Below the pieces are notes generated by a model that was not told the DNA's origin, made no database searches, and was given only the letters and a program-made list of their open reading frames with translations. From positions 50 through 64,049 of the forward strand of contig DATKYB010000051.1 in the NCBI GenBank assembly GCA_035528715.1: 64,000 nucleotides of DNA, in the 5' to 3' direction. The DNA is from Nitrospinota bacterium. Lineage in GTDB: Bacteria > JADFOP01 > DATKYB01. A program made the translations under genes and the position numbers. Shown here one piece after another: positions 1-49,282 of the stretch (its first letter is position 1; every line of letters begins with the position of its first letter).

Positions 1-101
1 TTTATAATGGTGGCGGATTCAACCTGCCCGAATTGTTCTAAAGCCAGCCGTAAGTCCTCTTCGGTGACCTCGTACGACAAATTTCCTACATAGATCTTCA
101 T
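1..101 (-). CDS. RRM (RNP-1/RNP-2) RNA-binding protein, N-terminal part (3' end off window)
   Basis: Minus-strand translation from ATG at 101 gives MKIYVGNLSYEVTEEDLRLALEQFGQVESATII, with a classic RNP-2 motif IYVGNL. RBS GGAGA is 6 nt upstream. Confidence 0.75.
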   Translation of the reverse strand, partial: MKIYVGNLSYEVTEEDLRLALEQFGQVESATII

Positions 102-140
102 TCTAATCTCCTTTTGTAATAAATTATAAATTTTCACATC

Positions 141-196
141 GCCTAACAATTAATAGACGAATTTCTGATTTGTATCGGATTTTTTTCTATATTAAA
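141..196 (-). repeat. Conserved cassette-associated hairpin repeat, copy R1 (class A)
   Basis: Plus strand gcCTAACAATTAATAGACGAAtttct. In gene orientation ATAGAAAAAAA...TTCGTCTATTAATTGTTAGGC ends 41 nt before ATG at 101. The 5' arm 181-196 pairs with the conserved 3' arm. Confidence 0.6.
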
Positions 197-197
197 T

Positions 198-227
198 ATT
201 CTACTAAAAAAGCTAAAATTTTGTCAA
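198..227 (-). promoter_or_regulatory. sigma70-type promoter (TTGACA-N18-TAGAAT) reading toward class-A repeat R1 and the RRM gene
   Basis: -35 TTGACA is the rc of 222-227 and -10 TAGAAT is the rc of 198-203. The predicted TSS falls at the start of the R1 hairpin. Confidence 0.5.
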
Positions 228-278
228 TAGGGTTTTACAGATTTTGCCATTTTCAAATTCGCCTTGGGGTTCTTTGCA

Positions 279-358
279 AGGAAAATTCGCTTTGTGAATC
301 TCCGAAGGAAAATCCTTCGAAAAATTCCTCAGGAAAATCCCTGAAAAATCTAAGGGGG
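279..358. repeat. Phased direct repeats GAAAATYC x5 (period 11-14 bp, one 28 bp gap)
   Basis: ggaaaattcgc (279), ggaaaatcc (307), gaaaaattcc (319), ggaaaatccc (332), gaaaaatct (343). They lie between attC-1 and the promoter at 198-227. Confidence 0.45.
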
Positions 359-371
359 ATTTAAATTTAAA

Positions 372-501
372 GCCTAACGGTCGAGTTCAGGGACAAGAGC
401 CATAGTACGATATTAACAAGCAAAAAGATGTTTAACAATAAAATAATAGCAAACGCTAAAAAGGCATCGCTGGCTCTTGTTCCCTCTGCAACGATTGGTT
501 A
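372..501 (-). other. attC-like recombination site 1 (~130 bp)
   Basis: In gene orientation it starts at the stop codon with TAACCAATCG (TAAC inverse core). A long imperfect inverted repeat GGGAACAAGAGCCA / TGGCTCTTGTCCC has a bulged base. It ends with core GTTAGGC (rc of 372-378). Confidence 0.55.
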
Positions 502-867
502 GACAGCTTCCCGTACCCATTTCTTTGCAGCATCCATATCTGCATAGTCAAACTGCTTCACTTCAGCAGACACAAAATGATTAGCTATCATTGGCGCAAT
601 TGACATAAGTTTTGAATCAGTTACTGCCGCTACTCTTTTGATTTTTTTATGATGATCTTTAATGAATTTCATATGATGTGTGAATGCTCCGAAACTCTTC
701 CATCCAGGAAAGTCTTTGGTATGTATTATGATTCCGTTAACATAGCCTTTTTCATTAATGTATGCATCTATTTCTTTGGTAAGTCGTTCAAAATCAGTTT
801 GTTCAAGTGCGCCTAATGGCTCAATAATAACTATCCCCTCTGCTCTCATAATTTCAAATGAAATCAT
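499..867 (-). CDS. STAS/SEC14-domain (DUF3478, SpoIIAA-like) protein
   Basis: 122 aa with the family pattern FPGW...FIKDHHKKIKRVAAV...EVKQFD...AKKWV. RBS AAAAGGA is 8 nt upstream of ATG 867. attC follows directly after the stop. Confidence 0.65.
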   Translation of the reverse strand: MISFEIMRAEGIVIIEPLGALEQTDFERLTKEIDAYINEKGYVNGIIIHTKDFPGWKSFGAFTHHMKFIKDHHKKIKRVAAVTDSKLMSIAPMIANHFVSAEVKQFDYADMDAAKKWVREAV

Positions 868-886
868 ATTTAATCCTTTTCTTGTG

Positions 887-1018
887 GTCTAACGTCTGGA
901 TCATCGATGCACACCATGAAGCACGCTCAAGGGCATTAAAGCTAATTTGCAGACTATAAATAATCACACTCAAAAAAGTCGCTGCTGGTGTGCATTCGAA
1001 TGCATCCGGTTGTTAGAT
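887..1018 (-). other. attC-like recombination site 2 (~132 bp)
   Basis: Inverse core ATCTAAC (rc of 1012-1018) contains the TAA stop of the upstream gene. Stems GGATGCAT..TGCACACCA / TGGTGTGCATCGATGATCC. Core GTTAGAC (rc of 887-893) lies 19 nt before the next ATG. Confidence 0.6.
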
Positions 1019-1828
1019 TTTATTTATTTTTCTTGCCCTTTCTAAAAATTCATCAACATGAGCGAACATGAATAAATACTCTCCATCAGGGTTTTTGAAT
1101 TCTGCAATCATTGTAAATCGATATATCATTTGATTGAATTCCTTAAAATAAGAAAATGCGCCAGCAAATCGCTCAAGCTCAAGAATATTACCCCATAGAA
1201 CTGGAGCCAATAGAAATGGAGGATATGTTCCAGTTAATCCATTAAGCTTTGAATTGAGTTTCTTTGTTAATCTGTGTTCCAGAAGTTTTTGAAATTTTTC
1301 TGTGCTTTCCATACGATCAAAATCAAAGTTGATATTGAAGACTTCAACAAGTGTTTTATTACCATCTTTTTCAACTTCAAAATCAAATCTTTTTCCATTT
1401 GGTAATTTTTTTTCAACTTGAATAAGCGTTAATCCGTCATCTTTTAGAAGCTTACTGATTACCGCTAACTCTGCAACAAAACTTTGAAATTGTGACTGAT
1501 TATCGTTAAAATTTATAATCATTTTATGGCATAGATTAATTATCTGCTTTCTCGGATCACCTTTAACTTTTTGAAGGATTTCAGTTGCCGTATTATTAAT
1601 AAATTTAAGAAATGCCAGAGAAGCTTGATCTCCCTCATTTGCGTTCCACCAAAAATCAAACATAGTCTTTTCTGAAATAAATTCGCCTTTTTCTTTAATG
1701 TCTGATTCTACTTTTTTGTAACGTTCATAATATTTACTGCTAATATCAGAAAGCAATTTATTTGATGAAGATAAAGCATCATATATTGAAGGCAAGTAAT
1801 GTTGTAGCAGATCTATGGGCTCATTCAT
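1013..1828 (-). CDS. Hypothetical protein (cassette ORF; start re-set to MNEPIDLL downstream of attC-3)
   Basis: The six-frame ORF extends to 1990 but would run through attC-3 and overlap the preceding gene. The in-frame ATG at 1828 lies 15 nt after GTTAGAT. No recognisable domain. Confidence 0.5.
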   Translation of the reverse strand: MNEPIDLLQHYLPSIYDALSSSNKLLSDISSKYYERYKKVESDIKEKGEFISEKTMFDFWWNANEGDQASLAFLKFINNTATEILQKVKGDPRKQIINLCHKMIINFNDNQSQFQSFVAELAVISKLLKDDGLTLIQVEKKLPNGKRFDFEVEKDGNKTLVEVFNINFDFDRMESTEKFQKLLEHRLTKKLNSKLNGLTGTYPPFLLAPVLWGNILELERFAGAFSYFKEFNQMIYRFTMIAEFKNPDGEYLFMFAHVDEFLERARKINKI

Positions 1829-1842
1829 TTTAATTTTTAAAA

Positions 1843-1914
1843 ATCTAACATCGCGGTTCACTGGCCGGAAGGGCCGCAGGCCCTTACGGTCCATGTGAAA
1901 CCGCCTGGTTAGAG
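1843..1914 (-). other. attC-like recombination site 3 (72 bp)
   Basis: In gene orientation: cTCTAAC - TTTCACATGGACCGTAAGGGCC tgc GGCCCTTCCGGCCAGTGAA - GTTAGAT. It has a perfect GTTRRRY core and bulged bases, and is GC-rich in AT-rich surroundings. Confidence 0.65.
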
Positions 1915-1925
1915 GGCACTCTTTT

Positions 1926-2858
1926 CTATGTATATATTTCATCTGTGATTTCTTTACACAGGCCATCAAGTCCAGGATATATTTTACCACTCGTTATTCC
2001 AATTTTTGCCAATTCTTTTCTCAGGTCATTTTTTCTCTTGCCATCTATAACCAATTTGCAAAATATTCGTCGTCCGCAGCAGGGGCAAACAATGAGCTTT
2101 CCATCCTTATTAAACCCATCAGGTTTGTTCCCAAATAACGTAAAACATGATCTCTGTGCTGTTATCCTCGGATTCAGATGTGGTGGTAATAATGCTATGG
2201 GTGAAGCGGGCAGTCCCCAAACAGAGTGATCGTTTGGTGTAGTGATGTTTTCTAACCATCTATCCGTTGATTTTTCTCCTGGATAGAGAACCGTACCGCT
2301 GGACCAATGGTCTTCACCTCCGAGTTCCTCTAACGCATATGTAAGCAAAGTTGTAGGAGCTAGACATGTAACTATTGGGTTTTTTGTATCTTCCATCTCT
2401 GTTCCTAGAGAGAAAAATAGTGCTATAGCTGCATCCTGAGACCAATCAAGAAGTCTAGTTGATCCACCATAATGTTGGATAAGGAAATACCATGACCATG
2501 TATCTGAAATGCTAATCTCAGGCACTAAGGATCGCGCTCGCCTTTGAAATTCAAAAAAGTATTTGCGCTCTTTTTTTTGCTGCTCTGATATTTTATCGTT
2601 ATCGATGTTTCTATATAGCTTTGGCACAAGGCTACCAAAATCCTTCTGTTCGCCACGGAACCAAGTGGACTCAGTCGTACATAATCTGATGTATTTGAAA
2701 TATTCTTCAAGGTTCTTAATAGGACTGAGATTCAAATATCCTTTAGGATGCCATTCTCTGCGCAATGCTATCTTGGATTCTAATGTCTTTGCCTTTTTAT
2801 ATAATTCCCTTACGTCTTCCCGGTCTTTCTCGGGTATATAATCTATCCAATTATGCAT
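1926..2858 (-). CDS. FRG-domain protein
   Basis: 310 aa. STWFRGEQKDFGSLVPKLYR, LIQHYGGSTRLLDWSQD and AQRSCFTLFG match the FRG domain signature. A C-terminal CPCCGRR Cys cluster is present. RBS AAAGGGAAA is upstream of ATG 2858. Confidence 0.65.
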   Translation of the reverse strand: MHNWIDYIPEKDREDVRELYKKAKTLESKIALRREWHPKGYLNLSPIKNLEEYFKYIRLCTTESTWFRGEQKDFGSLVPKLYRNIDNDKISEQQKKERKYFFEFQRRARSLVPEISISDTWSWYFLIQHYGGSTRLLDWSQDAAIALFFSLGTEMEDTKNPIVTCLAPTTLLTYALEELGGEDHWSSGTVLYPGEKSTDRWLENITTPNDHSVWGLPASPIALLPPHLNPRITAQRSCFTLFGNKPDGFNKDGKLIVCPCCGRRIFCKLVIDGKRKNDLRKELAKIGITSGKIYPGLDGLCKEITDEIYT

Positions 2859-2912
2859 AATAATGTTTCCCTTTGCCTTGATTTAATACGGTGTGTATCT
2901 TCTTTATTTGAC

Positions 2913-2947
2913 CTCTAACAATTAATAGACGAAGTTCTTGTTTATGC
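2913..2947 (-). repeat. Class-A conserved repeat, copy R2 (truncated; begins at stop codon of 2950..3675)
   Basis: In gene orientation TGA-GTGCATAAACAAGAACTTCGTCTATTAATTGTTAGAG, 57 nt upstream of ATG 2858. Confidence 0.55.
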
Positions 2948-2949
2948 AC

Positions 2950-3675
2950 TCATAGTACTAACTTTATTAAGTCGGTTTTCTTTTTTTCTTTCCAAACATT
3001 CAAAACCTCCTCCTTGAAATCGTCATATGTTCCATCAATTATGATCTTTTCAACAGATTTAGAAGCGGTCATATCTTCATACGAAAATTGAAACGTAATT
3101 TCATAAGACTTTAGCGAATTTAATTCTTTAGAAAAGTGCATAAGATCGTTGTTCGTTATTACCACATCGATTTCACACCTCATTAAAATCCGGGAGTGTT
3201 TTTCAAGTTTATATGGGAAAATACATGATTTTAAAGAATCTAGTAAGTGTTTAAAGTGGATAGCGGCTGGTTTATTGCTCAGGAGGTCACTATTTGTTTT
3301 AAGCCCAATAATTTCAGGTCGATTTAAAATTATCATTTCATCACGATTGTTTATAAGATCGAAATCAATCGTAAAGTGTGTTTTTGAGTCAACGCGCCCA
3401 TCTCCTAAAAAAGCATAGGGCCTAAATGATGATGTTTTTTTTATAATTTTGAATTCGTTACCAGGTGGCATTTTTATTAAAGCCTGTTTCCAGGCTTTAT
3501 AACCAGCGTAAAATACACATAGTATTGCAAATAGGCCAGTAATTTTGCTTTTTGAAGAAAGATCAATAGGAGAGACACTAGCCACAAGAATAATAATTAA
3601 GGAAACTGCACTAAAATAATTGGTAGCTGACCTTAACAGTACCTTTATATATTCATTGAATTGGCTTTGTTTCAT
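2950..3675 (-). CDS. Hypothetical membrane-anchored protein
   Basis: 241 aa. The N-terminal hydrophobic segments (LIIILVASVS, LFAILCVFYAGY) suggest 1-2 TM helices. No recognisable domain. Confidence 0.5.
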   Translation of the reverse strand: MKQSQFNEYIKVLLRSATNYFSAVSLIIILVASVSPIDLSSKSKITGLFAILCVFYAGYKAWKQALIKMPPGNEFKIIKKTSSFRPYAFLGDGRVDSKTHFTIDFDLINNRDEMIILNRPEIIGLKTNSDLLSNKPAAIHFKHLLDSLKSCIFPYKLEKHSRILMRCEIDVVITNNDLMHFSKELNSLKSYEITFQFSYEDMTASKSVEKIIIDGTYDDFKEEVLNVWKEKKKTDLIKLVL

Positions 3676-3698
3676 AGTAGTTCAATCAAGTTTAAGGC

Positions 3699-3763
3699 CC
3701 ATAACGGGCTGCTCAGGGGCGGTGCGTTTTTTAGCGCCGTCCCTTGCAGCAGCAAGGTTATAA
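3699..3763 (-). other. attC-like recombination site 4 (65 bp)
   Basis: In gene orientation: TTATAACC (stop TAA inside) - CTTGCTGCTGCAAGGGACGGCGC taaaaaa CGCACCGCCCCTGAGCAGC - CCGTTATGG. The cores ATAAC/GTTAT are inverted. It is not a Rho-independent terminator (no U-tract). Confidence 0.6.
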
Positions 3764-4222
3764 GTCCTTTTCAATTTTATTTATTTTATCTTGAAGGTTT
3801 TTTTCTACTTCTTTAACAAGCAATTCGATCTCGGAAATTCGTGAGTCAATTTTATCGAAGTCATAGGCTCGGCATGACATTGGGAACCATTTCTTTGCAG
3901 GTGTACTCCAGTTTGCAACTTTCGGTCTTCGGTATTGATAATCCGTGTGTGCGAATAATTGATTACGAAGGTCAACCAATTCATCATGGAGCGGGCGAAG
4001 TCGTGAGGGAACAACCTTTTTTGTCAATGTGTGTTTTGGAATATGTGTACCCTTATTTACTGAAAAAGGGCGAACATAAGAAACTACAATATCTCTAAGG
4101 AGGCAATATCGGATATCTTTACGCCGATAGCGTTTTAGAATCCGAAGAGCATGCTTTGTTGAATCGAAGTCGATCGAGTAAAGCCTATAGAAATAATATT
4201 CTTCCATGTCTATATTTTTCAT
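3758..4222 (-). CDS. Hypothetical protein (154 aa, basic)
   Basis: ORF starts 15 nt after class-A repeat R3. No recognisable domain. Confidence 0.5.
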   Translation of the reverse strand: MKNIDMEEYYFYRLYSIDFDSTKHALRILKRYRRKDIRYCLLRDIVVSYVRPFSVNKGTHIPKHTLTKKVVPSRLRPLHDELVDLRNQLFAHTDYQYRRPKVANWSTPAKKWFPMSCRAYDFDKIDSRISEIELLVKEVEKNLQDKINKIEKDL

Positions 4223-4231
4223 AATTCAACT

Positions 4232-4284
4232 TCCAACAATTAATAGACGGATTTCTTATTTATTCGTTTTTCTCTGTTGTGGAG
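4232..4284 (-). repeat. Class-A conserved hairpin repeat, copy R3
   Basis: In gene orientation CACAACAGAGAAAAACGAATAAATAAGAAATCCGTCTATTAATTGTTGGAAG. Arms ACAGAGAAAAA / TCCGTCTATT are complementary. Confidence 0.6.
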
Positions 4285-4395
4285 GCTTCAAAACAGATGG
4301 AAAAAATGCAGAATAACGATAAGTAACAACTTTCTAGACCAACATTAAAATCCAGTCCAGAAGTAGAGCAGAATCAACAACAAATTTAAATTCAG

Positions 4396-4423
4396 AATAT
4401 ATTTAAAAAGAGAAAAAAGTCAA
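4396..4423 (-). promoter_or_regulatory. sigma70-type promoter (TTGACT-N16-TATATT) upstream of R3 and gene 3758..4222
   Basis: -35 is the rc of 4418-4423 and -10 is the rc of 4396-4401. It is preceded by AAGAACTTTGAATTGAAAAA, a sequence also found at the 5397-5425 promoter. Confidence 0.45.
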
Positions 4424-4445
4424 GGATATTTTTCAATTCAAAGTT

Positions 4446-4524
4446 CTTGTTATTTCCTCCTTCCCCTTCTGCTTTTTAGGTTTATGCTGAGGGGAGCGAG
4501 GATAAAGTGGAATGAGTTGTTAGA
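4446..4524 (-). other. attC-like recombination site 5 (R' end degenerate)
   Basis: Inverse core ATCTAAC (rc of 4518-4524) lies 12 nt after the stop. Stems CCTCGCTCCCCTCAGC / GCAGAAGGGGAAGGAGG. The 3' end reads AATAACAAGAACTTTG instead of GTTRRRY, which resembles the class-A loop sequence. Confidence 0.45.
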
Positions 4525-4534
4525 TGTTATTATT

Positions 4535-4777
4535 TTATGTTACAATTCGTAAGGCAAAATACGGAATAATATTAAAAACAAATATAGCTATTTTTAAAAA
4601 AGCCATGCCTGCATAATGAATTGCATCGAACGTTTCTACTGGAATCTTGAACCACTTGCTATGCATGCGATAAATCCAATCATGAGCAAATGCAAACAAT
4701 AAAAACCACCACAGCAATAATCCCATATTAATTACAGCGCACCATCCTAATGCTCCACGCAATATATCAACTGTCAT
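4535..4777 (-). CDS. Small membrane protein (80 aa, 2 predicted TM helices)
   Basis: Strong RBS AAAGGAGAAG is 5 nt upstream of ATG 4777. Hydrophobic segments WCAVINMGLLLWWFLLFAF and FLKIAIFVFNIIPYF. Confidence 0.55.
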   Translation of the reverse strand: MTVDILRGALGWCAVINMGLLLWWFLLFAFAHDWIYRMHSKWFKIPVETFDAIHYAGMAFLKIAIFVFNIIPYFALRIVT

Positions 4778-4817
4778 TTGTCTTCTCCTTTTCTGTAAAT
4801 ATTTTATTATTTATTTC

Positions 4818-4889
4818 ATATAACGCTAAAGCTCACTGGCGGGGGTGGAGCGCAGCAAAATCCCCGTCCAGTGCAGCACTTTGTTAGCC
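4818..4889 (-). other. attC-like recombination site 6 (72 bp)
   Basis: In gene orientation: GGCTAAC (contains the TAA stop) - GCTGCACTGGACGGGGA ... TCCACCCCCGCCAGTGAGC - GTTATAT. Bulged G and A bases in the stem. Confidence 0.6.
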
Positions 4890-5276
4890 ACCTAATTTAT
4901 TTTCAATAACTTCATGGACCTCCCAATTTTTGTCAATCCATATTCCAATTATTTCTATGTTTTCATATTGTTGACGAAGAAATTGTATTGCCTTTTGTAT
5001 GTGTATAATTTGATCATTTTGTGGTGCTGGATTTCCGGCACAATCGTGATGGCCAACAATAGCAACTCCTACGGAATTATGATGCTCAATTGAAATTTTC
5101 AGTCTTTCAAGAATCGACTGAATAGAGGTAATGCTTTTCTCTTCTGATAGAATCAGATTTGGGCCAGCTTCAGTAATGGAGTCAACATATTCAACATTGA
5201 ATCGTTTTTGCAGATATCTAATTACAGGTAATTGAACTCGCCCATCCATGCAATTGATAACTGTATAGAATCGCAT
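4884..5276 (-). CDS. Small protein with a possible beta-carbonic-anhydrase-like metal-binding pattern (CxDxR ... HxxC)
   Basis: 130 aa. The motifs NCMDGRV and VGHHDCAGN resemble the Cys-Asp-x-Arg / His-x-x-Cys zinc ligands of beta-class carbonic anhydrases, but the protein is shorter than typical CAs. RBS GAAGGAAAC is upstream of ATG 5276. Confidence 0.45.
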   Translation of the reverse strand: MRFYTVINCMDGRVQLPVIRYLQKRFNVEYVDSITEAGPNLILSEEKSITSIQSILERLKISIEHHNSVGVAIVGHHDCAGNPAPQNDQIIHIQKAIQFLRQQYENIEIIGIWIDKNWEVHEVIENKLGG

Positions 5277-5292
5277 ACCGTTTCCTTCTGGT

Positions 5293-5342
5293 GGCTAACA
5301 ATTAATAGACGAAGTTCTTGTTTATGCTTTTTCTCTATTGTG
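5293..5342 (-). repeat. Class-A conserved hairpin repeat, copy R4 (most complete)
   Basis: In gene orientation CACAATAGAGAAAAAGCATAAACAAGAACTTCGTCTATTAATTGTTAGCC, 23 nt before ATG 5276. Arms ACAATAGAGAAAAAG / CTTCGTCTATT-TGT. Confidence 0.6.
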
Positions 5343-5396
5343 ATAAATCTATATGTATTTTTGAAAATTATGCAATAAAATATCAAAATTCATGTA

Positions 5397-5425
5397 ATTA
5401 TATAAAATCAAAGGGTTTTTTGCAA
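5397..5425 (-). promoter_or_regulatory. sigma70-type promoter (TTGCAA-N17-TATAAT) for first in-window cassette
   Basis: Perfect -10 TATAAT (rc of 5397-5402) and -35 TTGCAA (5420-5425). The transcript leader (~110 nt) contains R4. Confidence 0.55.
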
Positions 5426-5610
5426 TTGAAAGTTCTTTTTGTTCTTGTCCCCTTTTAGATTTTTCAGGGATGCGGCACCAAAGGTCAAATACCGTAAAGA
5501 AAAATTTTAGAGCATTTAAAATCGTTCTGGTGTTCCTGTTTTCAAAGAGGTTACTTCTTAAATTTCAATATTTTCAATAAGTTATCCATCCATTTTATGC
5601 CATCAGTATC

Positions 5611-5638
5611 CATTTTGCGCTTGCATATTGAGGTTTTA
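5611..5638 (+). promoter_or_regulatory. sigma70-type promoter (TTGCAT-N16-TATAAT) for DUF721 gene
   Basis: -35 at 5611-5616 and -10 at 5633-5638, 27 nt upstream of ATG 5666. Confidence 0.45.
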
Positions 5639-5665
5639 AATGTATAATTAATAATATCATATTTT

Positions 5666-5980
5666 ATGAAATTAAGAGTTATGAAGAATTTTGTTAAGAT
5701 AGGCACTGTTTTAAAAAAGTCACTTAAGAAATTTAGGCTGGAGAAGGGAATAAAGCAGTGCAGGATTTTGGATATATGGGACAAAGTTGTAGGCGAACAG
5801 ATAGCTGCTGTTACCCGTCCAGGATATATAAAGGGGAAGACCCTCTATATATTTGTAAGAGATTCGATTTGGCTGCAGGAATTGAAATTCTTAGAAAGGA
5901 TGATTATTGAAAAACTAAATAATAAAGTTGGTGGTAAGATAATAGAAAATATTTATTTCAAGATTGATACAGAAAGGTAA
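5666..5980 (+). CDS. DUF721 (DciA-like) protein
   Basis: 104 aa. The pattern ILDIWDKVVGEQIAAVTRPGYIKGKTLYIFVRDSIWLQEL is typical of DUF721. Confidence 0.6.
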   Translation: MKLRVMKNFVKIGTVLKKSLKKFRLEKGIKQCRILDIWDKVVGEQIAAVTRPGYIKGKTLYIFVRDSIWLQELKFLERMIIEKLNNKVGGKIIENIYFKIDTER

Positions 5981-5988
5981 ATGACAAA

Positions 5989-7761
5989 ATGAAAAAGACT
6001 CTTTTTAAAAAAGAACTTTTGGTTTTCGTTCTTTTTGCTTCGATTATTTTTGGCTGCGGAGATATAAATGAGATATTAAAAGGAAAAGAAAGTGAGGATA
6101 TTAAAGGTCATATAAAATTTGAGATTATACAACCAGAGGACGAAAGGGCATCTAGCAAGAAGGCACTGGCTTATTATCATTATATCTTAGCTGAAATTTA
6201 TAGCCTTAAGAATGACATAGAGAAATCCATAGAGTCTTATAAAGAGGCTATAAAGTATGACTCAAATTCTTCTTATCTCCATTTTAACCTCTCTTCAGAA
6301 TATCTAAAAAAAGGAGATGTTTCAAAAGCCATTTCAGAGATTCAGGAGGCATTGGCAATCAATCCTGAATATAAAGAAGCCAGGATACTATTAGGAAAAA
6401 TCTATTCTGGTCTCAAAAAAAGAGATTTAGCCATTACTCAGTTCAAAAAAGTTATGGACCAAAGTCCCGAAGAAATAGAACCCTATCTTTTTTTAGGGAC
6501 TCTCTATGCTGAAGAGAAAGATTACGACAATGCAATACTCACTTTTCAAAAATTATTAGAAAAAAGGCCGGATTCTGTTGAGGGCGTTTACTATATAGGA
6601 AGGATCTACCTCATAATGAATTTATATAATAGGGCAGAGGAATATTTTAAAAAAGCAATAGAAATATCTCCCGATTTTGAAGACGCTTTAAGGGGATTGG
6701 GAGATATTTATATGATTAGAGGAGATTATGAGGAAGCAGTCAAACATTATGAAAAAGTGCTGGAGATTAATCCTCATAGTAATCTTATTAGAGAAAGGCT
6801 GGGACAAATTTATCTAAAAAAGGAGTCCTTAGATGAAGCCTTAAAGGAATATAAAATTATTTTAGAGTCTGAACCGGAAAACCTATTGACTCACAAAAGA
6901 TTGGCTTTTATCTACTTTAAACAGGGGAATTATTCAGAGGCCCTCAAAGAGTTTCAAATAATTCTTGCTGCTCAACCAAAAGATACGAAAATAAGATATT
7001 ACAAGGCATTGCTATATGAAGAGATGAAGAAATATGACGATGCCTTACTGGAACTGAAAGAGATTATTAAAATAAATCCAAATTCTGTGGATAGTCGGTT
7101 ATTTATGGCTCGTATTTATAAAATCTTAAATAAAGTAGATGATGCTATTGATATCTTGGAGGAACTAGCAAAGGTTGATCCCAAACAATCAAAAGGTTAT
7201 TTTTATTTGGGCATCATCCTTTCTGAGGAAAAAAAATATAATGAATCAGTAAAAAACTTTAAAAAGGCAATAGAGTTAGAACCAAAAAATGATAAATATC
7301 ATTTTAATCTAGGGGCGACTTATGAGAAGATGGGTGAGTTTGAATTATCAATTCATGAGATGAAAAAAACGATTGAGTTGAATCCCAATTATGCGAATGC
7401 TCATAATTACTTAGGATATATGTATGTAGAAAGAGGGATTAATTTAGATGAATCTATTCTTATCATCAAGAAGGCTCTGGAGTTAGAACCAGAAAATGGA
7501 TATTTTGTCGATAGTTTGGGTTGGGCATATTTTAAAAAAGGTTGGTATGAAAAGGCTCTGAATGAATTAGAGAAGGCTGTTAGCTTGGTACCTGATGATC
7601 CAGTAATCAGAGATCATTTAGGTGATATATATTTTAAATTAGAGAGAAAACAAGAGGCATTAAATGAGTGGAGGAAGTCGTTAGAAATAAAACCTGATAA
7701 CAGAGAGGTGGAAAAGAAATTAAAAAATTTGGAGAAAGTATTTGAAAAGGCGAATCATTAA
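5989..7761 (+). CDS. TPR-repeat lipoprotein
   Basis: 590 aa. Lipobox FGCG after the signal peptide. About 14 tandem TPR units (AxxYxxxG/AxxxY patterns). Confidence 0.8.
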   Translation: MKKTLFKKELLVFVLFASIIFGCGDINEILKGKESEDIKGHIKFEIIQPEDERASSKKALAYYHYILAEIYSLKNDIEKSIESYKEAIKYDSNSSYLHFNLSSEYLKKGDVSKAISEIQEALAINPEYKEARILLGKIYSGLKKRDLAITQFKKVMDQSPEEIEPYLFLGTLYAEEKDYDNAILTFQKLLEKRPDSVEGVYYIGRIYLIMNLYNRAEEYFKKAIEISPDFEDALRGLGDIYMIRGDYEEAVKHYEKVLEINPHSNLIRERLGQIYLKKESLDEALKEYKIILESEPENLLTHKRLAFIYFKQGNYSEALKEFQIILAAQPKDTKIRYYKALLYEEMKKYDDALLELKEIIKINPNSVDSRLFMARIYKILNKVDDAIDILEELAKVDPKQSKGYFYLGIILSEEKKYNESVKNFKKAIELEPKNDKYHFNLGATYEKMGEFELSIHEMKKTIELNPNYANAHNYLGYMYVERGINLDESILIIKKALELEPENGYFVDSLGWAYFKKGWYEKALNELEKAVSLVPDDPVIRDHLGDIYFKLERKQEALNEWRKSLEIKPDNREVEKKLKNLEKVFEKANH

Positions 7762-12208: not shown

Positions 12209-14179
12209 ATGGAAGGATACGTAGTATATGCACCTGTTTTTGGAGTCATCGGTTTAATTACAGCAGCGCTTATTTATTTTTATATAAAAAGGCAACCTTC
12301 AGGCACAAAGGTAATGATAGAAATATCTGAGGCAATCCATGAAGGGGCCATGGTATTTCTTAAAAAGGAGTATAAGATAATTTCTATTTTTATCATATTT
12401 GTATTTATCATCTTATCTGCCACCATTAGTTTTTTCACAGCATTGGCATTTCTATCTGGGGCCTTGTGTTCTATGTTAGCAGGGTTTTTCGGTATGAAGG
12501 CAGCAACGAGGGCCAATGTCAGAACGTCACAAGCAGCTAATCAGGAAGGTCAGATGAAGGCATTGCAGATAGCCTTTTCTGGTGGATCTGTCATGGGGCT
12601 ATCCGTAGCTAGTCTCGGACTGATAGGAATAGGTATATTTTTCTATCTCTTTAGTCAGAAAGACCCTTCCATCATAAATGGATTTGCAATGGGTGCCAGT
12701 TCCATAGCTTTGTTTGCAAGAGTAGGAGGAGGGATATATACCAAGACAGCTGATGTGGGTGCTGATCTTGTAGGAAAAGTCGAAGCCGGGATTCCAGAAG
12801 ATGATCCTAGAAATCCTGGGGTTATCGCTGACAATGTAGGAGATTGTGTTGGTGATACCGCTGGTATGGGAGCTGATATCTTTGAGTCATATGTTGGTTC
12901 CATCATTGCTACAATAGCTATAGGCTCCACAATAAGCCCCCTCACCTTTAAATTTATGGCTCTGCCTCTATTAATCGTCATGTTGGGCCTGATTGCCTCA
13001 ATTTTGGGTGTCCTTACCATAAAGATTTTTAGCAAGCTCGATCCAGCATCAATCTTAAGATATTCAACAATCTTTAGTGCTCTTATTTTATTGATAGCAG
13101 CTTATTTATTAATGAAAAGAATGGGGTTTGCCTCTGGTATCTATTGGGCTCTATTTTCTGGAAGCCTTGCGGGTATCTTAATAGGAATTTTAACAGAGTA
13201 TTATACCGGCGGTAGCCCAATAATAAGAATTGCAAAGTCTTCTCAAACAGGGCCAGCAACCAACATAATAACTGGTCTTGCAGTAGCAATGGAAAGCACT
13301 GCCTTACCAATATTGGTAATCTGTGCGGCAATATATATTGCTGCAAAGTTTGCCGGGCTTTACGGTATAGGACTATCTGCTGTTGGTATGCTCTCCACTG
13401 TAGGAATAACTATGTCTGTTGATGCTTATGGTCCTATTGCGGATAATGCGGGGGGCATATCTGAGATGTCTGGTCTTGGTGAAGAGACAAGGAAGATAAC
13501 AGATGGATTAGATGCCTTAGGGAATACTACTGCAGCCATAGGTAAAGGTTTTGCTATTGGTTCAGCTGCTCTGACCGCCCTTGCTTTATTCTCTGCCTAT
13601 ACAAAGGCTGTAAATCTTGAGGTTATAGATATTACTAATGCCAAGGTTGTTATAGGGTTGTTTATCGGGGGTGCAATCCCATTTTTTATTGCATCCCTAA
13701 CAATGACCTCAGTTGGTAAGGCTGCCTTCAAGATGGTCAATGAGATAAGAAGACAGTTCAGAGAAATTCCGGGTATCATGGAAGGAAAGGCAAAACCTGA
13801 CTCAGCCAAGTGTGTAGATATTAGTACAACTGCGGCCCTAAAAGAGATGATCATTCCAGGTATAATAGCTATTATTTCTCCTGTTCTTATTGGATATTTT
13901 GCAGGTCCCCAAGCTTTAGGAGGGATGCTGGCTGGGGCAACATTGACAGGTGTGCTTCTGGCATTGATGATGGCAAATGGGGGGGGAGCTTGGGATAATG
14001 CGAAGAAATATATAGAAAAAGGAAACTTAGGGGGTAAGGGATCTGAAGCCCATAAGGCTTCTGTGGTTGGCGATACTGTTGGTGATCCTTTTAAGGATAC
14101 GTCAGGTCCATCAATGAATATATTAATCAAATTAATGTCTGTCGTTTCACTCGTATTAGCTCCGTTATTTATTCGTTAA
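12209..14179 (+). CDS. hppA: Membrane-bound proton/sodium-translocating pyrophosphatase
   Basis: 656 aa polytopic. [19 protein letters not shown] and DNVGDCVGD / [15 protein letters not shown] motifs. Confidence 0.9.
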
Positions 14180-43994: not shown

Positions 43995-45557
<1,563 letters not shown>

Positions 45558-45720
45558 AGGAGAAAACGATGAGAAAGAAAGATTGAAATCTTTCTTATCT
45601 GATTGTTCTTCTAGATCGATAACTCATAATGAAGTAATGCATCTCTTATTGTTTAAAAAGTAATATATAGCAATTTTTTTTAGGGCATAGGCCTTAATTT
45701 AACAACCTATAGAATTAGTA

Positions 45721-45797
<77 letters not shown>

Positions 45798-45836
45798 TTA
45801 TTTTTGCTATTTAATATCAAGATTATTAGATATCTG

Positions 45837-45911
<75 letters not shown>

Positions 45912-46061
45912 ATTTTAGCCAGTAATCAGTATCCAGGAACCTAAAAAATGGTTACTGGATACTGAGTATTGACTAAAAGGAATTGTTATTGTTCTTTGAA
46001 AATTGAATAGATTTGGGTAATCAAAAGCATCTTAATGTAGCTTACATTTAAAAAAAATTAT

Positions 46062-49118
<3,057 letters not shown>

Positions 49119-49163
49119 AATATAAAATATTCTTTTAGATCCAAATTTTAGAAATTATATTTT

Positions 49164-49278
<115 letters not shown>

Positions 49279-49282
49279 ATAA

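Follow-up and report, generated by a model that had tools for sequence, protein, structure and literature searches.

Within a 64,000-nucleotide stretch of contig DATKYB010000051.1 of a Nitrospinota bacterium (assembly GCA_035528715.1; hereafter the window), positions 1-5471 of the minus strand form an integron cassette array without an integrase gene, situated between core genes. A short conserved element recurs in this array. We consider it highly likely that this element is an attI site and that three promoter-like sites upstream of it are the Pc-type promoters of three copies of an attI platform, the combination of attI and Pc that belongs to textbook integron anatomy. All genes from 1 to 5276 are encoded on the minus strand and are separated by canonical attC hairpins, six of which occur in the array; the region was therefore read as an integron cassette array.

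The attI-type element and its crossover

The element, ...AAGAAnTYCGTCTATTAATTG|TTRG, is present in four minus-strand copies of 19-33 nt (Table 1). In the plus-strand reading, AACAATTAATAGACGAAGTTCTTG, these four copies compare with none expected from 100 shuffles. One copy is located 3' of each promoter and a fourth at 2917-2940. The copies precede, by 14-60 nt, the start codons of four mutually unrelated genes encoding a putative carbonic anhydrase, a 154-aa protein, an FRG-domain protein, and an RRM RNA-binding protein. The similarity among them ends exactly at GTTAGCC, GTTGGAA, GTTAGAG, and GTTAGGC, that is, at the integron crossover G|TTRRRY. This element is the strongest repeat of the region and had been missed in an initial annotation of the window.

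To place the element in a wider context, one genome per species was scanned for TYCGTCTATTAATTGTTRG. The 19-mer was found at 44 loci (numbered with the prefix L, as are other related contigs), about 37 of which share the longer consensus AAAnnACGAAnTTCGTCTATTAATTGTTRG; seven of the 44 loci fall into coding sequence and resemble chance matches. The element itself is present in about 37 contigs, which represent at least 12 phylum-level groups, comprising Omnitrophota, Thermodesulfovibrionia/Nitrospirota, Thermodesulfobacteriota, Atribacterota, Patescibacteria, Dehalococcoidales, Planctomycetia, Aminicenantes, Nitrospinota, Clostridia, a cyanobacterium, and one metagenome-assembled genome (MAG) of the Halobacteriota. 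In an alignment of 37 copies, the columns are invariant up to GTTRG and no conservation occurs beyond; the sequence upstream is promoter-like while the DNA downstream is unrelated. No copy was found in viral contigs, and a search for its sequence string in the literature library used here yielded no relevant match. In the Halobacteriota MAG (L015), the same attI element at 34-52 is followed by a matching R'' 728 nt later, an occurrence that could reflect either cross-domain spread or a binning error.

In two Omnitrophota contigs, L006 and L022, the start of an intact divergent open reading frame (ORF) lies 160-174 nt upstream of the TTCGTC core, and this ORF encodes an integron integrase (TIGR02249 'integron integrase', 426 and 433 bits with a cutoff of 265; Pfam domains Phage_integrase and SAM_4). 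A decayed intI precedes the element in L014, and in L002, L005, L008, L018, and L032 just the first 27-70 intI codons are left, 100-250 nt upstream. Thus, intI or a remnant of it occurs in 8 of 38 upstream regions. The five short remnants suggest recurrent loss of the intI body with retention of the promoter/attI region. The canonical order of this platform is the intI start, the palindrome ACGAAnTTCGT together with a reverse-strand TTGCTA-N16-TATAAT (Pint), a forward promoter, and the element. The integrases of L006 (1302-2603) and L022 (5606-6892) both possess an N-terminal extension of roughly 106 aa that resembles a second SAM-like domain. The same two contigs have two ACGAAnTTCGT sites. 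One adjoins the attI core, and the other, distal site covers the start of the reverse-strand Pint and resembles an inverted attI left arm.

If a cassette entered as a circle, its 5' end is expected to be complementary to the R'' of the attC that it carries. We therefore searched for the reverse complement of the 8 nt from the crossover G within 4 kb downstream of each copy, with the upstream side serving as control. A match was obtained downstream in 16 of 35 copies, typically at a distance of one cassette length, compared to 1 of 35 in the upstream controls. The positives include L022 and three of the four window copies (pairs TTAGCCAC/GTGGCTAA, TTAGAGG/CCTCTAA, and TTAGGCGA/TCGCCTAA); at the 4233 copy no exact 8-nt match was found. 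The 5' end TTAGCCACC of the carbonic-anhydrase cassette is complementary to the R'' GGTGGCTAAC of that cassette, the 5' end TTAGAGG of the FRG cassette matches its R'' CCTCTAAC, and the 5' end TTAGGCGA of the RRM cassette matches its own R'' TCGCCTAAC (the latter read in contig L045).

A comparison between strains gave independent information. Contig L078, recovered from metagenomes by a scan for the sequence box that precedes two of the promoters (see below), carries the same dciA/TPR locus with 96.1% identity over 5.5 kb, and the flanks of the crossover are 96-97% identical. In L078 the element is joined straight to the DUF6868 cassette (G|TTAGATGAAATAA...), which is the first cassette there. 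The window holds an extra carbonic-anhydrase cassette of 475 bp, exactly between ...AATTG and TTATATGAAATAA... (TTA). Since this cassette is lacking in L078 precisely at the crossover, it was gained or lost at the element after the two strains diverged. Such gain or loss at attI between strains of 96% identity implies recent action of an integrase, presumably in trans.

The fourth copy, at 2915-2947, is identical to the head element in 33 of 33 positions. The stop codon of a 241-aa ORF is located 2 nt from the 29-nt attI left arm (2919-2947); the ORF begins after the attC at about 3697-3765, and no hairpin, and hence no attC following this ORF, was found in 2859-2949. From its sequence, this unit reads as a cassette of the delta-attI type, in which a promoterless 29-nt attI remnant replaces the attC of the 241-aa gene.

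Predicted promoters, the shared box, and competing readings

The initial annotation had reported three near-consensus promoters reading in cassette direction. All three are present, as TTGACA-N18-TAGAAT (227->198, 11/12), TTGACT-N16-TATATT (4423->4396, 10/12), and TTGCAA-N17-TATAAT (5425->5397, 10/12), and they are the best minus-strand promoter matches in 1-6000. Among 38 copies of the element, the best -35/-10 score in the preceding 90 nt was 8.87 compared to 8.01 (sd 0.93) in shuffles, and 21% scored 10 or higher compared to 3.8% in shuffles. Strong sites in other contigs end 26-41 nt before TTCGTC, and the 227->198 site, ending 36 nt before it, occupies this canonical Pc position. L078 retains the head promoter (5425->5397) and its spacing, the promoter end being 49 nt from TTCGTC in the attI core, and L057 retains it as TTGCAA-N16-TATAAT despite a different spacer. 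In the window this distance grows to 83 nt through a 33-nt stretch of the head module (5343-5375) that is missing in L078. A 'canonical Pc' TTGCAT-N16-TATAGA at 5375->5348, proposed from a MAFFT alignment with L006, was rejected because it lies in this insertion. The 4423->4396 site is kept only in L101, which is nearly identical and thus little informative. Comparative support for the promoters is moderate: the 227->198 and head sites are probable promoters, while the 4423->4396 site is a possible one.

The box, AAGAACTTTSAATTGMAAAA, occurs exactly twice in the 64 kb, on the minus strand at 4429-4448 and 5418-5437 (0.16 copies expected; 1 of 100 shuffles reaches two). The initial annotation had correctly noticed it ahead of two promoters, giving coordinates (4424-4445 and 5426-5447) that deviate slightly, by a few bases. 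The -35 of the head promoter, TTGCAA, is part of the box; in the second copy, 5 nt separate the box from the -35. Pairwise alignment of the two modules revealed two separate shared blocks, one consisting of a hairpin and the box, the other of about 48 nt next to the genes. The box differs by one mismatch from the palindrome TTTCAATTGAAA, and CAAGAAMTT...AATTG is common to the box and the element's left arm. It is restricted to the head-type and module-2-type platforms of this lineage (window, L078, L057, and L101). In module 4, the third platform, no box was found within 3 mismatches, and by eye only a diverged look-alike with an indel is discernible. The box suggested to be operator-like is real beside two promoters and confined to one lineage. 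A role as a general motif was rejected: of 64 matches in the metagenome scan, 3 were relevant and 61 unrelated and mostly coding, and the palindrome TTTCAATTGAAA is not enriched in the window. We also considered the box as a homologue of 'site A', as proposed from its position (-124, compared to -104 to -143, mostly -123 to -138, for site A). This was not supported, since the box is located at about -90 in L078 and a profile of the canonical repeats did not match it. Its likeliest role, although a guess, would be that of a protein-binding site, either an accessory site for the integrase or a promoter operator at the -35.

The box is always preceded by a hairpin of the 'Y' type or by a Y-like remnant. 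This lineage-specific, hairpin-like repeat, CCCCCTT(N4-6)TTTTTnAGGGAT, occurs in the window at 337-377, 4465-4506, and 5448-5471, and in related contigs at 12590-12650 (L045), 14050-14078 (L078), and 262-325 (L057). Forward copies, with TTAGGCTTTAAATTTAAAT ahead of them, follow the final attC of each sub-array; inverted copies stand immediately upstream of the box.

Several observations weigh against an interpretation of these segments as attI/Pc platforms. No integrase gene or intI remnant is present in the 64-kb window or in an additional 7.7 kb covered by L045, and activity in this genome would need an unseen IntI acting in trans. An IntI-like tyrosine recombinase is absent from the whole window, permissive tblastn revealed no intI remnant in 5440-5670, and a 'KSPLD' match at 348-362 was dismissed, as it comprises 5 residues only. 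The region shows no overall enrichment of promoter-like pairs (30 compared to 23.7 +/- 4.9 in shuffles), and the hexamers alone therefore prove little. The box-adjacent promoters are located 83 nt (head) and 144 nt (4423->4396) from the element, beyond the usual 26-41 nt, and they are not in register, as their -10 hexamers do not align pairwise. The box was not detected by an nhmmer profile built from the upstream repeats of canonical platforms (ACGAAnTTCGT; all E>1), so that a link between the box and the integrase repeats is only a resemblance. The attC detector used initially is heuristic: its strict mode misses half of the true sites and its relaxed mode was non-specific (77 matches upstream and 105 downstream), and it was replaced by the junction test. 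Finally, the taxonomy of the related contigs is based on MAGs, in which binning errors are possible.

The initial annotation had interpreted the promoters as parts of promoter-carrying cassettes that share a reused regulatory module or a duplicated 5' segment. In this scenario, ordinary mobile cassettes would each possess their own sigma70 promoter, and a dedicated regulator would bind the box as a shared operator. The hexamers at their positions, the near-palindromic box occurring twice instead of the expected 0.16 times, and module 4, which is bounded on its left by an attC crossover and is structurally a promoter-bearing unit inside the array, are in line with this. However, the promoters lie outside the units of ORF and attC, in segments whose right end is the attI-type element and not an attC; the head copy is outside any cassette and abuts the core gene dciA, likewise in L078. 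In addition, the box is missing from module 4 and limited to the platforms of this lineage, its palindrome is unenriched, and the -10 hexamers of the box-linked promoters are unaligned. A non-coding module with plausible outward promoters is indeed reused ahead of unrelated genes, but not as one duplicated promoter, and the modules are better described as copies of an integron platform. We therefore consider promoter-carrying cassettes unlikely.

It is very unlikely that the element acts as a structured or sequence-specific RNA signal in the 5' untranslated region, such as a riboswitch, thermosensor, or translational operator. Being located between promoter and ribosome-binding site of each gene, it would be transcribed. 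However, no Rfam match was obtained even at E<=1, the consensus fold of the 37 copies has -3.3 kcal/mol with 5 pairs and 0 compensatory changes, and changes in the left half of the palindrome ACGAAnTTCGT are not compensated. Start codons lie at variable distances (14-60 nt in the window), yet conservation always stops at G|TT, and the evidence from junctions and strains is specific to recombination. Taken together, the junction signatures, the strain polymorphism, and the failure of the RNA explanation led us to conclude that the element is, with high likelihood, an attI site.

Still less credible is a terminal repeat of a small transposable element or a miniature inverted-repeat transposable element with an outward promoter. 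Multiple copies that are always oriented towards genes and contain promoter-like sequence, and hairpin-like Y repeats inverted at the two ends of the array, would fit such an element, but only one end is conserved, the left boundaries of the four copies differ, and neither target-site duplications nor a transposase were found; moreover, the right end is the integron crossover, the DNA that follows has the matching attC R'', and the neighbouring gene in relatives is intI. Chance occurrence of hexamers and short shared words in A/T-rich intergenic DNA, for which the low G+C content (33-37%), the 30 promoter-like pairs with 23.7 expected, and the 61 of 64 metagenome box matches in unrelated coding sequence could be cited, is equally implausible and for the repeats largely refuted by the four copies of the element with none in 100 shuffles, the position of the box within 40-nt aligned blocks, the retention of the box and TTGCAA/TATAAT in L078 and L057, and the retention of the element across phyla.

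Anatomy of the array

The array comprises one head platform, two internal platforms, and the cassettes behind them (Table 1). It runs 1.9 kb beyond the start of the window and stops before osmC. Contig L045, which represents the same genome in another assembly, holds one additional cassette (cytochrome c) past the RRM cassette, and there the array closes with TTAGGCTTTAAATTTAAAT and the Y sequence before osmC. As the same sequence opens module 4, the region reads as arrays placed in tandem, which is consistent with a copy of module 2 (93.6% identical) that adjoins non-cassette genes in L101. The order of genes and modules is the same in four independent assemblies with 99.96% identity, and the repeats are shorter than the assembly k-mer; the arrangement is not a mis-assembly. 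The attC of the DUF6868 cassette ends after its R'' and is fused to the Y-like piece of module 2 (4507-4526), while it continues normally in L078; judged from the sequence, this truncation marks a rearrangement junction.

Table 1. Features of the cassette array in the window (listed in the direction of the genes).
Feature	Position	Strand	Details
Head module	5293-5471	-	Beside core gene dciA; inverted Y hairpin 5448-5471; box 5418-5437; TTGCAA-N17-TATAAT 5425->5397
Head module, attI-type element	5295-5342	-	Crossover G5299|T5298
Cassette 1, putative carbonic anhydrase (Pro_CA_2)	4824-5298	-	ORF 5276->4884; canonical attC 4887->4819
Cassette 2, DUF6868	4507-4823	-	ORF 4777->4535; attC ends abruptly after R'' (ATCTAACAACTCATTCCAC, 4526->4508)
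Internal module 2	4233-4506	-	Inverted Y-like piece 4465-4506; box 4429-4448; TTGACT-N16-TATATT 4423->4396
Internal module 2, attI-type element	4233-4281	-	Crossover G4237|T4236
Cassette 3	3706-4236	-	154-aa ORF 4222->3758; canonical attC about 3765->3697
Putative delta-attI-type cassette	2919-3705	-	241-aa ORF 3675->2950; no attC, no promoter; attI-type element 2915-2947, crossover G2919|T2918
FRG-domain protein cassette	1849-2918	-	ORF 2858->1926; attC 1915->1843
Unknown-protein cassette	1848-893	-	About 272 aa from ATG at 1831 (293 aa as called in assemblies); attC 1017->888
SpoIIAA-like cassette	892-378	-	ORF 867->499; attC 502->372
Internal module 4 (third platform, ORF-less)	147-377	-	Opens at attC crossover: TTAGGCTTTAAATTTAAAT and forward Y hairpin 377->337
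Module 4, inner parts		-	GGAAAATYC repeats 342->240; TTGACA-N18-TAGAAT 227->198; attI-type element 143-175 and leftward, crossover G147|T146
RRM_1 RNA-binding protein cassette, start	1-146	-	ATG 101->99

Three further observations were made in the window. The RRM_1 protein (142 aa, with a Gly/Arg-rich repeat tail; window 1-101, L045 10767-11195) is encoded by an integron cassette. In module 4, short GGAAAATYC/AGGAAAATTCCTC repeats (Tandem Repeats Finder: period 13, 2.9 copies) and a small palindrome, TTCGAAGGATTTTCCTTCGGA, are found at 240-342, between its Y hairpin and its promoter. A complete bacterial rRNA operon (16S, two tRNAs, 23S, 5S) is located at 43995-49279 and explains a high-GC stretch there.

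Internal platforms are not limited to the window. In L003, from an unrelated uncultured bacterium, a second internal unit at 6920-7178, 4.3 kb past the first platform, consists of an attC, about 190 nt, TTGCTT...TGATATAAT, and then TTCGCATATTAATTG|TTAGAC; its architecture is the same as that of module 4. In L029 the element follows soon after an ORF within an array. A shared left end was sought among the internal modules of L011, L038, L003, L042, and module 4, and none was convincing.

According to the model we favour, an integrase encoded elsewhere would cut between G and TT of the element and join it to the folded attC sites of circular cassettes. From each platform promoter, transcription would cross the element and enter the one or more cassettes that follow, and the internal copies would restart transcription deep in the array and supply additional insertion points. 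The array probably originated when separate arrays, each headed by a platform, fused, or when segments containing a platform moved. A bolder version, which we regard as doubtful, is that the promoter-plus-attI modules are themselves mobile, as ORF-less 'promoter cassettes' with an attI end that are moved into arrays by an integrase in trans. If so, such modules would switch on silent cassettes and create extra capture sites, and the box (in other lineages, the ACGAAnTTCGT palindromes) would be binding sites coupling recombination and transcription. The unit of L003 (attC, about 190-230 nt, promoter, element) and the presence of the conserved element in at least 12 phyla would then point to a class of integrons with modular promoters that is widespread and so far undescribed.

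Relation to known integrons and implications

The favoured interpretation, an array with repeated attI/Pc platforms, corresponds in several respects to known platforms such as attI1 of class 1 integrons and attIA/Pc of the Vibrio cholerae superintegron. As in these, a double-stranded site ends at G|TTRRRY, the element in relatives is about 160-175 bp from a divergent intI, a promoter reads (in the window, by prediction) through into the first cassette, and the cassette behind the element matches the R'' of its own attC. The attI1 simple site is CTAAAACAAAG|TTAGGC, and the core of the element, CTATTAATTG|TTAGGC, is similar in layout. In contrast, its sequence is unrelated to attI1, attI2, and attI3. 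While attI sites are usually class-specific, the 19-mer and flanking positions of this element are conserved across at least 12 phyla. Its upstream repeats are the ACGAAnTTCGT palindromes, beside the core and over the Pint start, and not the direct repeats DR1/DR2. The IntI beside it differs by the 106-aa N-terminal extension, and the window differs from known platforms in having four attI copies and no intI.

Some cassettes have their own promoters, e.g. the toxin-antitoxin cassettes of sedentary chromosomal integrons, and in these the promoter moves with the attC. The window resembles them in that transcription is predicted to start inside the array independently of the head Pc. However, its promoters belong to a reiterated platform segment that ends in attI.

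Cassettes with a truncated attI in place of the terminal attC have been catalogued, one with 244 nt of attI2, and were shown to recombine in class 1 and 2 integrons (PMC12901181). These delta-attI cassettes (attC-ORF-delta-attI, including delta-attI2-238) are paralleled by window positions 2915-2947, where a truncated attI appears to replace the attC with the crossover kept, and by the longer internal attI segments of the array (4233-4506 and 147-377). In contrast to the catalogued cases (PMC12901181), the window represents a chromosomal array of an uncultured bacterium that lacks an integrase and has a different attI; in addition, two of its internal copies carry a promoter, one of them being ORF-less. 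With its canonical attC cassettes, core-gene flanks, and no intI nearby, the window also resembles a cluster of attC sites lacking integron integrase (CALIN), a term of IntegronFinder (PMC4889954); that definition ignores attI, whereas the window keeps a recognisable attI/Pc head. With respect to conservation, Ghaly et al. refer to putative attIs that are 'semi-conserved' across archaeal phyla (PMC9668308).

We regard these results as a variation on known integron biology and not as a new regulatory system, and the integron paradigm is unchanged. What is new is limited to this attI type and its cross-phylum conservation, its persistence with a promoter at the head of and inside arrays that lack an integrase, and the recurring ORF-less unit of promoter and attI after an attC, seen in module 4 and a second time in L003. 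Apparent promoters inside 'promoterless' cassettes thereby become a readable map of one head platform, two internal attI/Pc platforms, and one putative delta-attI cassette, and this map predicts which cassettes are likely expressed. The signature TYCGTCTATTAATTG|TTRG marks the insertion site of an integron type distributed across many anaerobic or uncultured phyla, among them Omnitrophota, Nitrospirota, Desulfobacterota, Atribacterota, and Patescibacteria, and present in one archaeal MAG. It could help to annotate attI within arrays from the environment that at present count as CALINs. As the strain difference at the crossover shows, such 'orphan' arrays still exchange cassettes.

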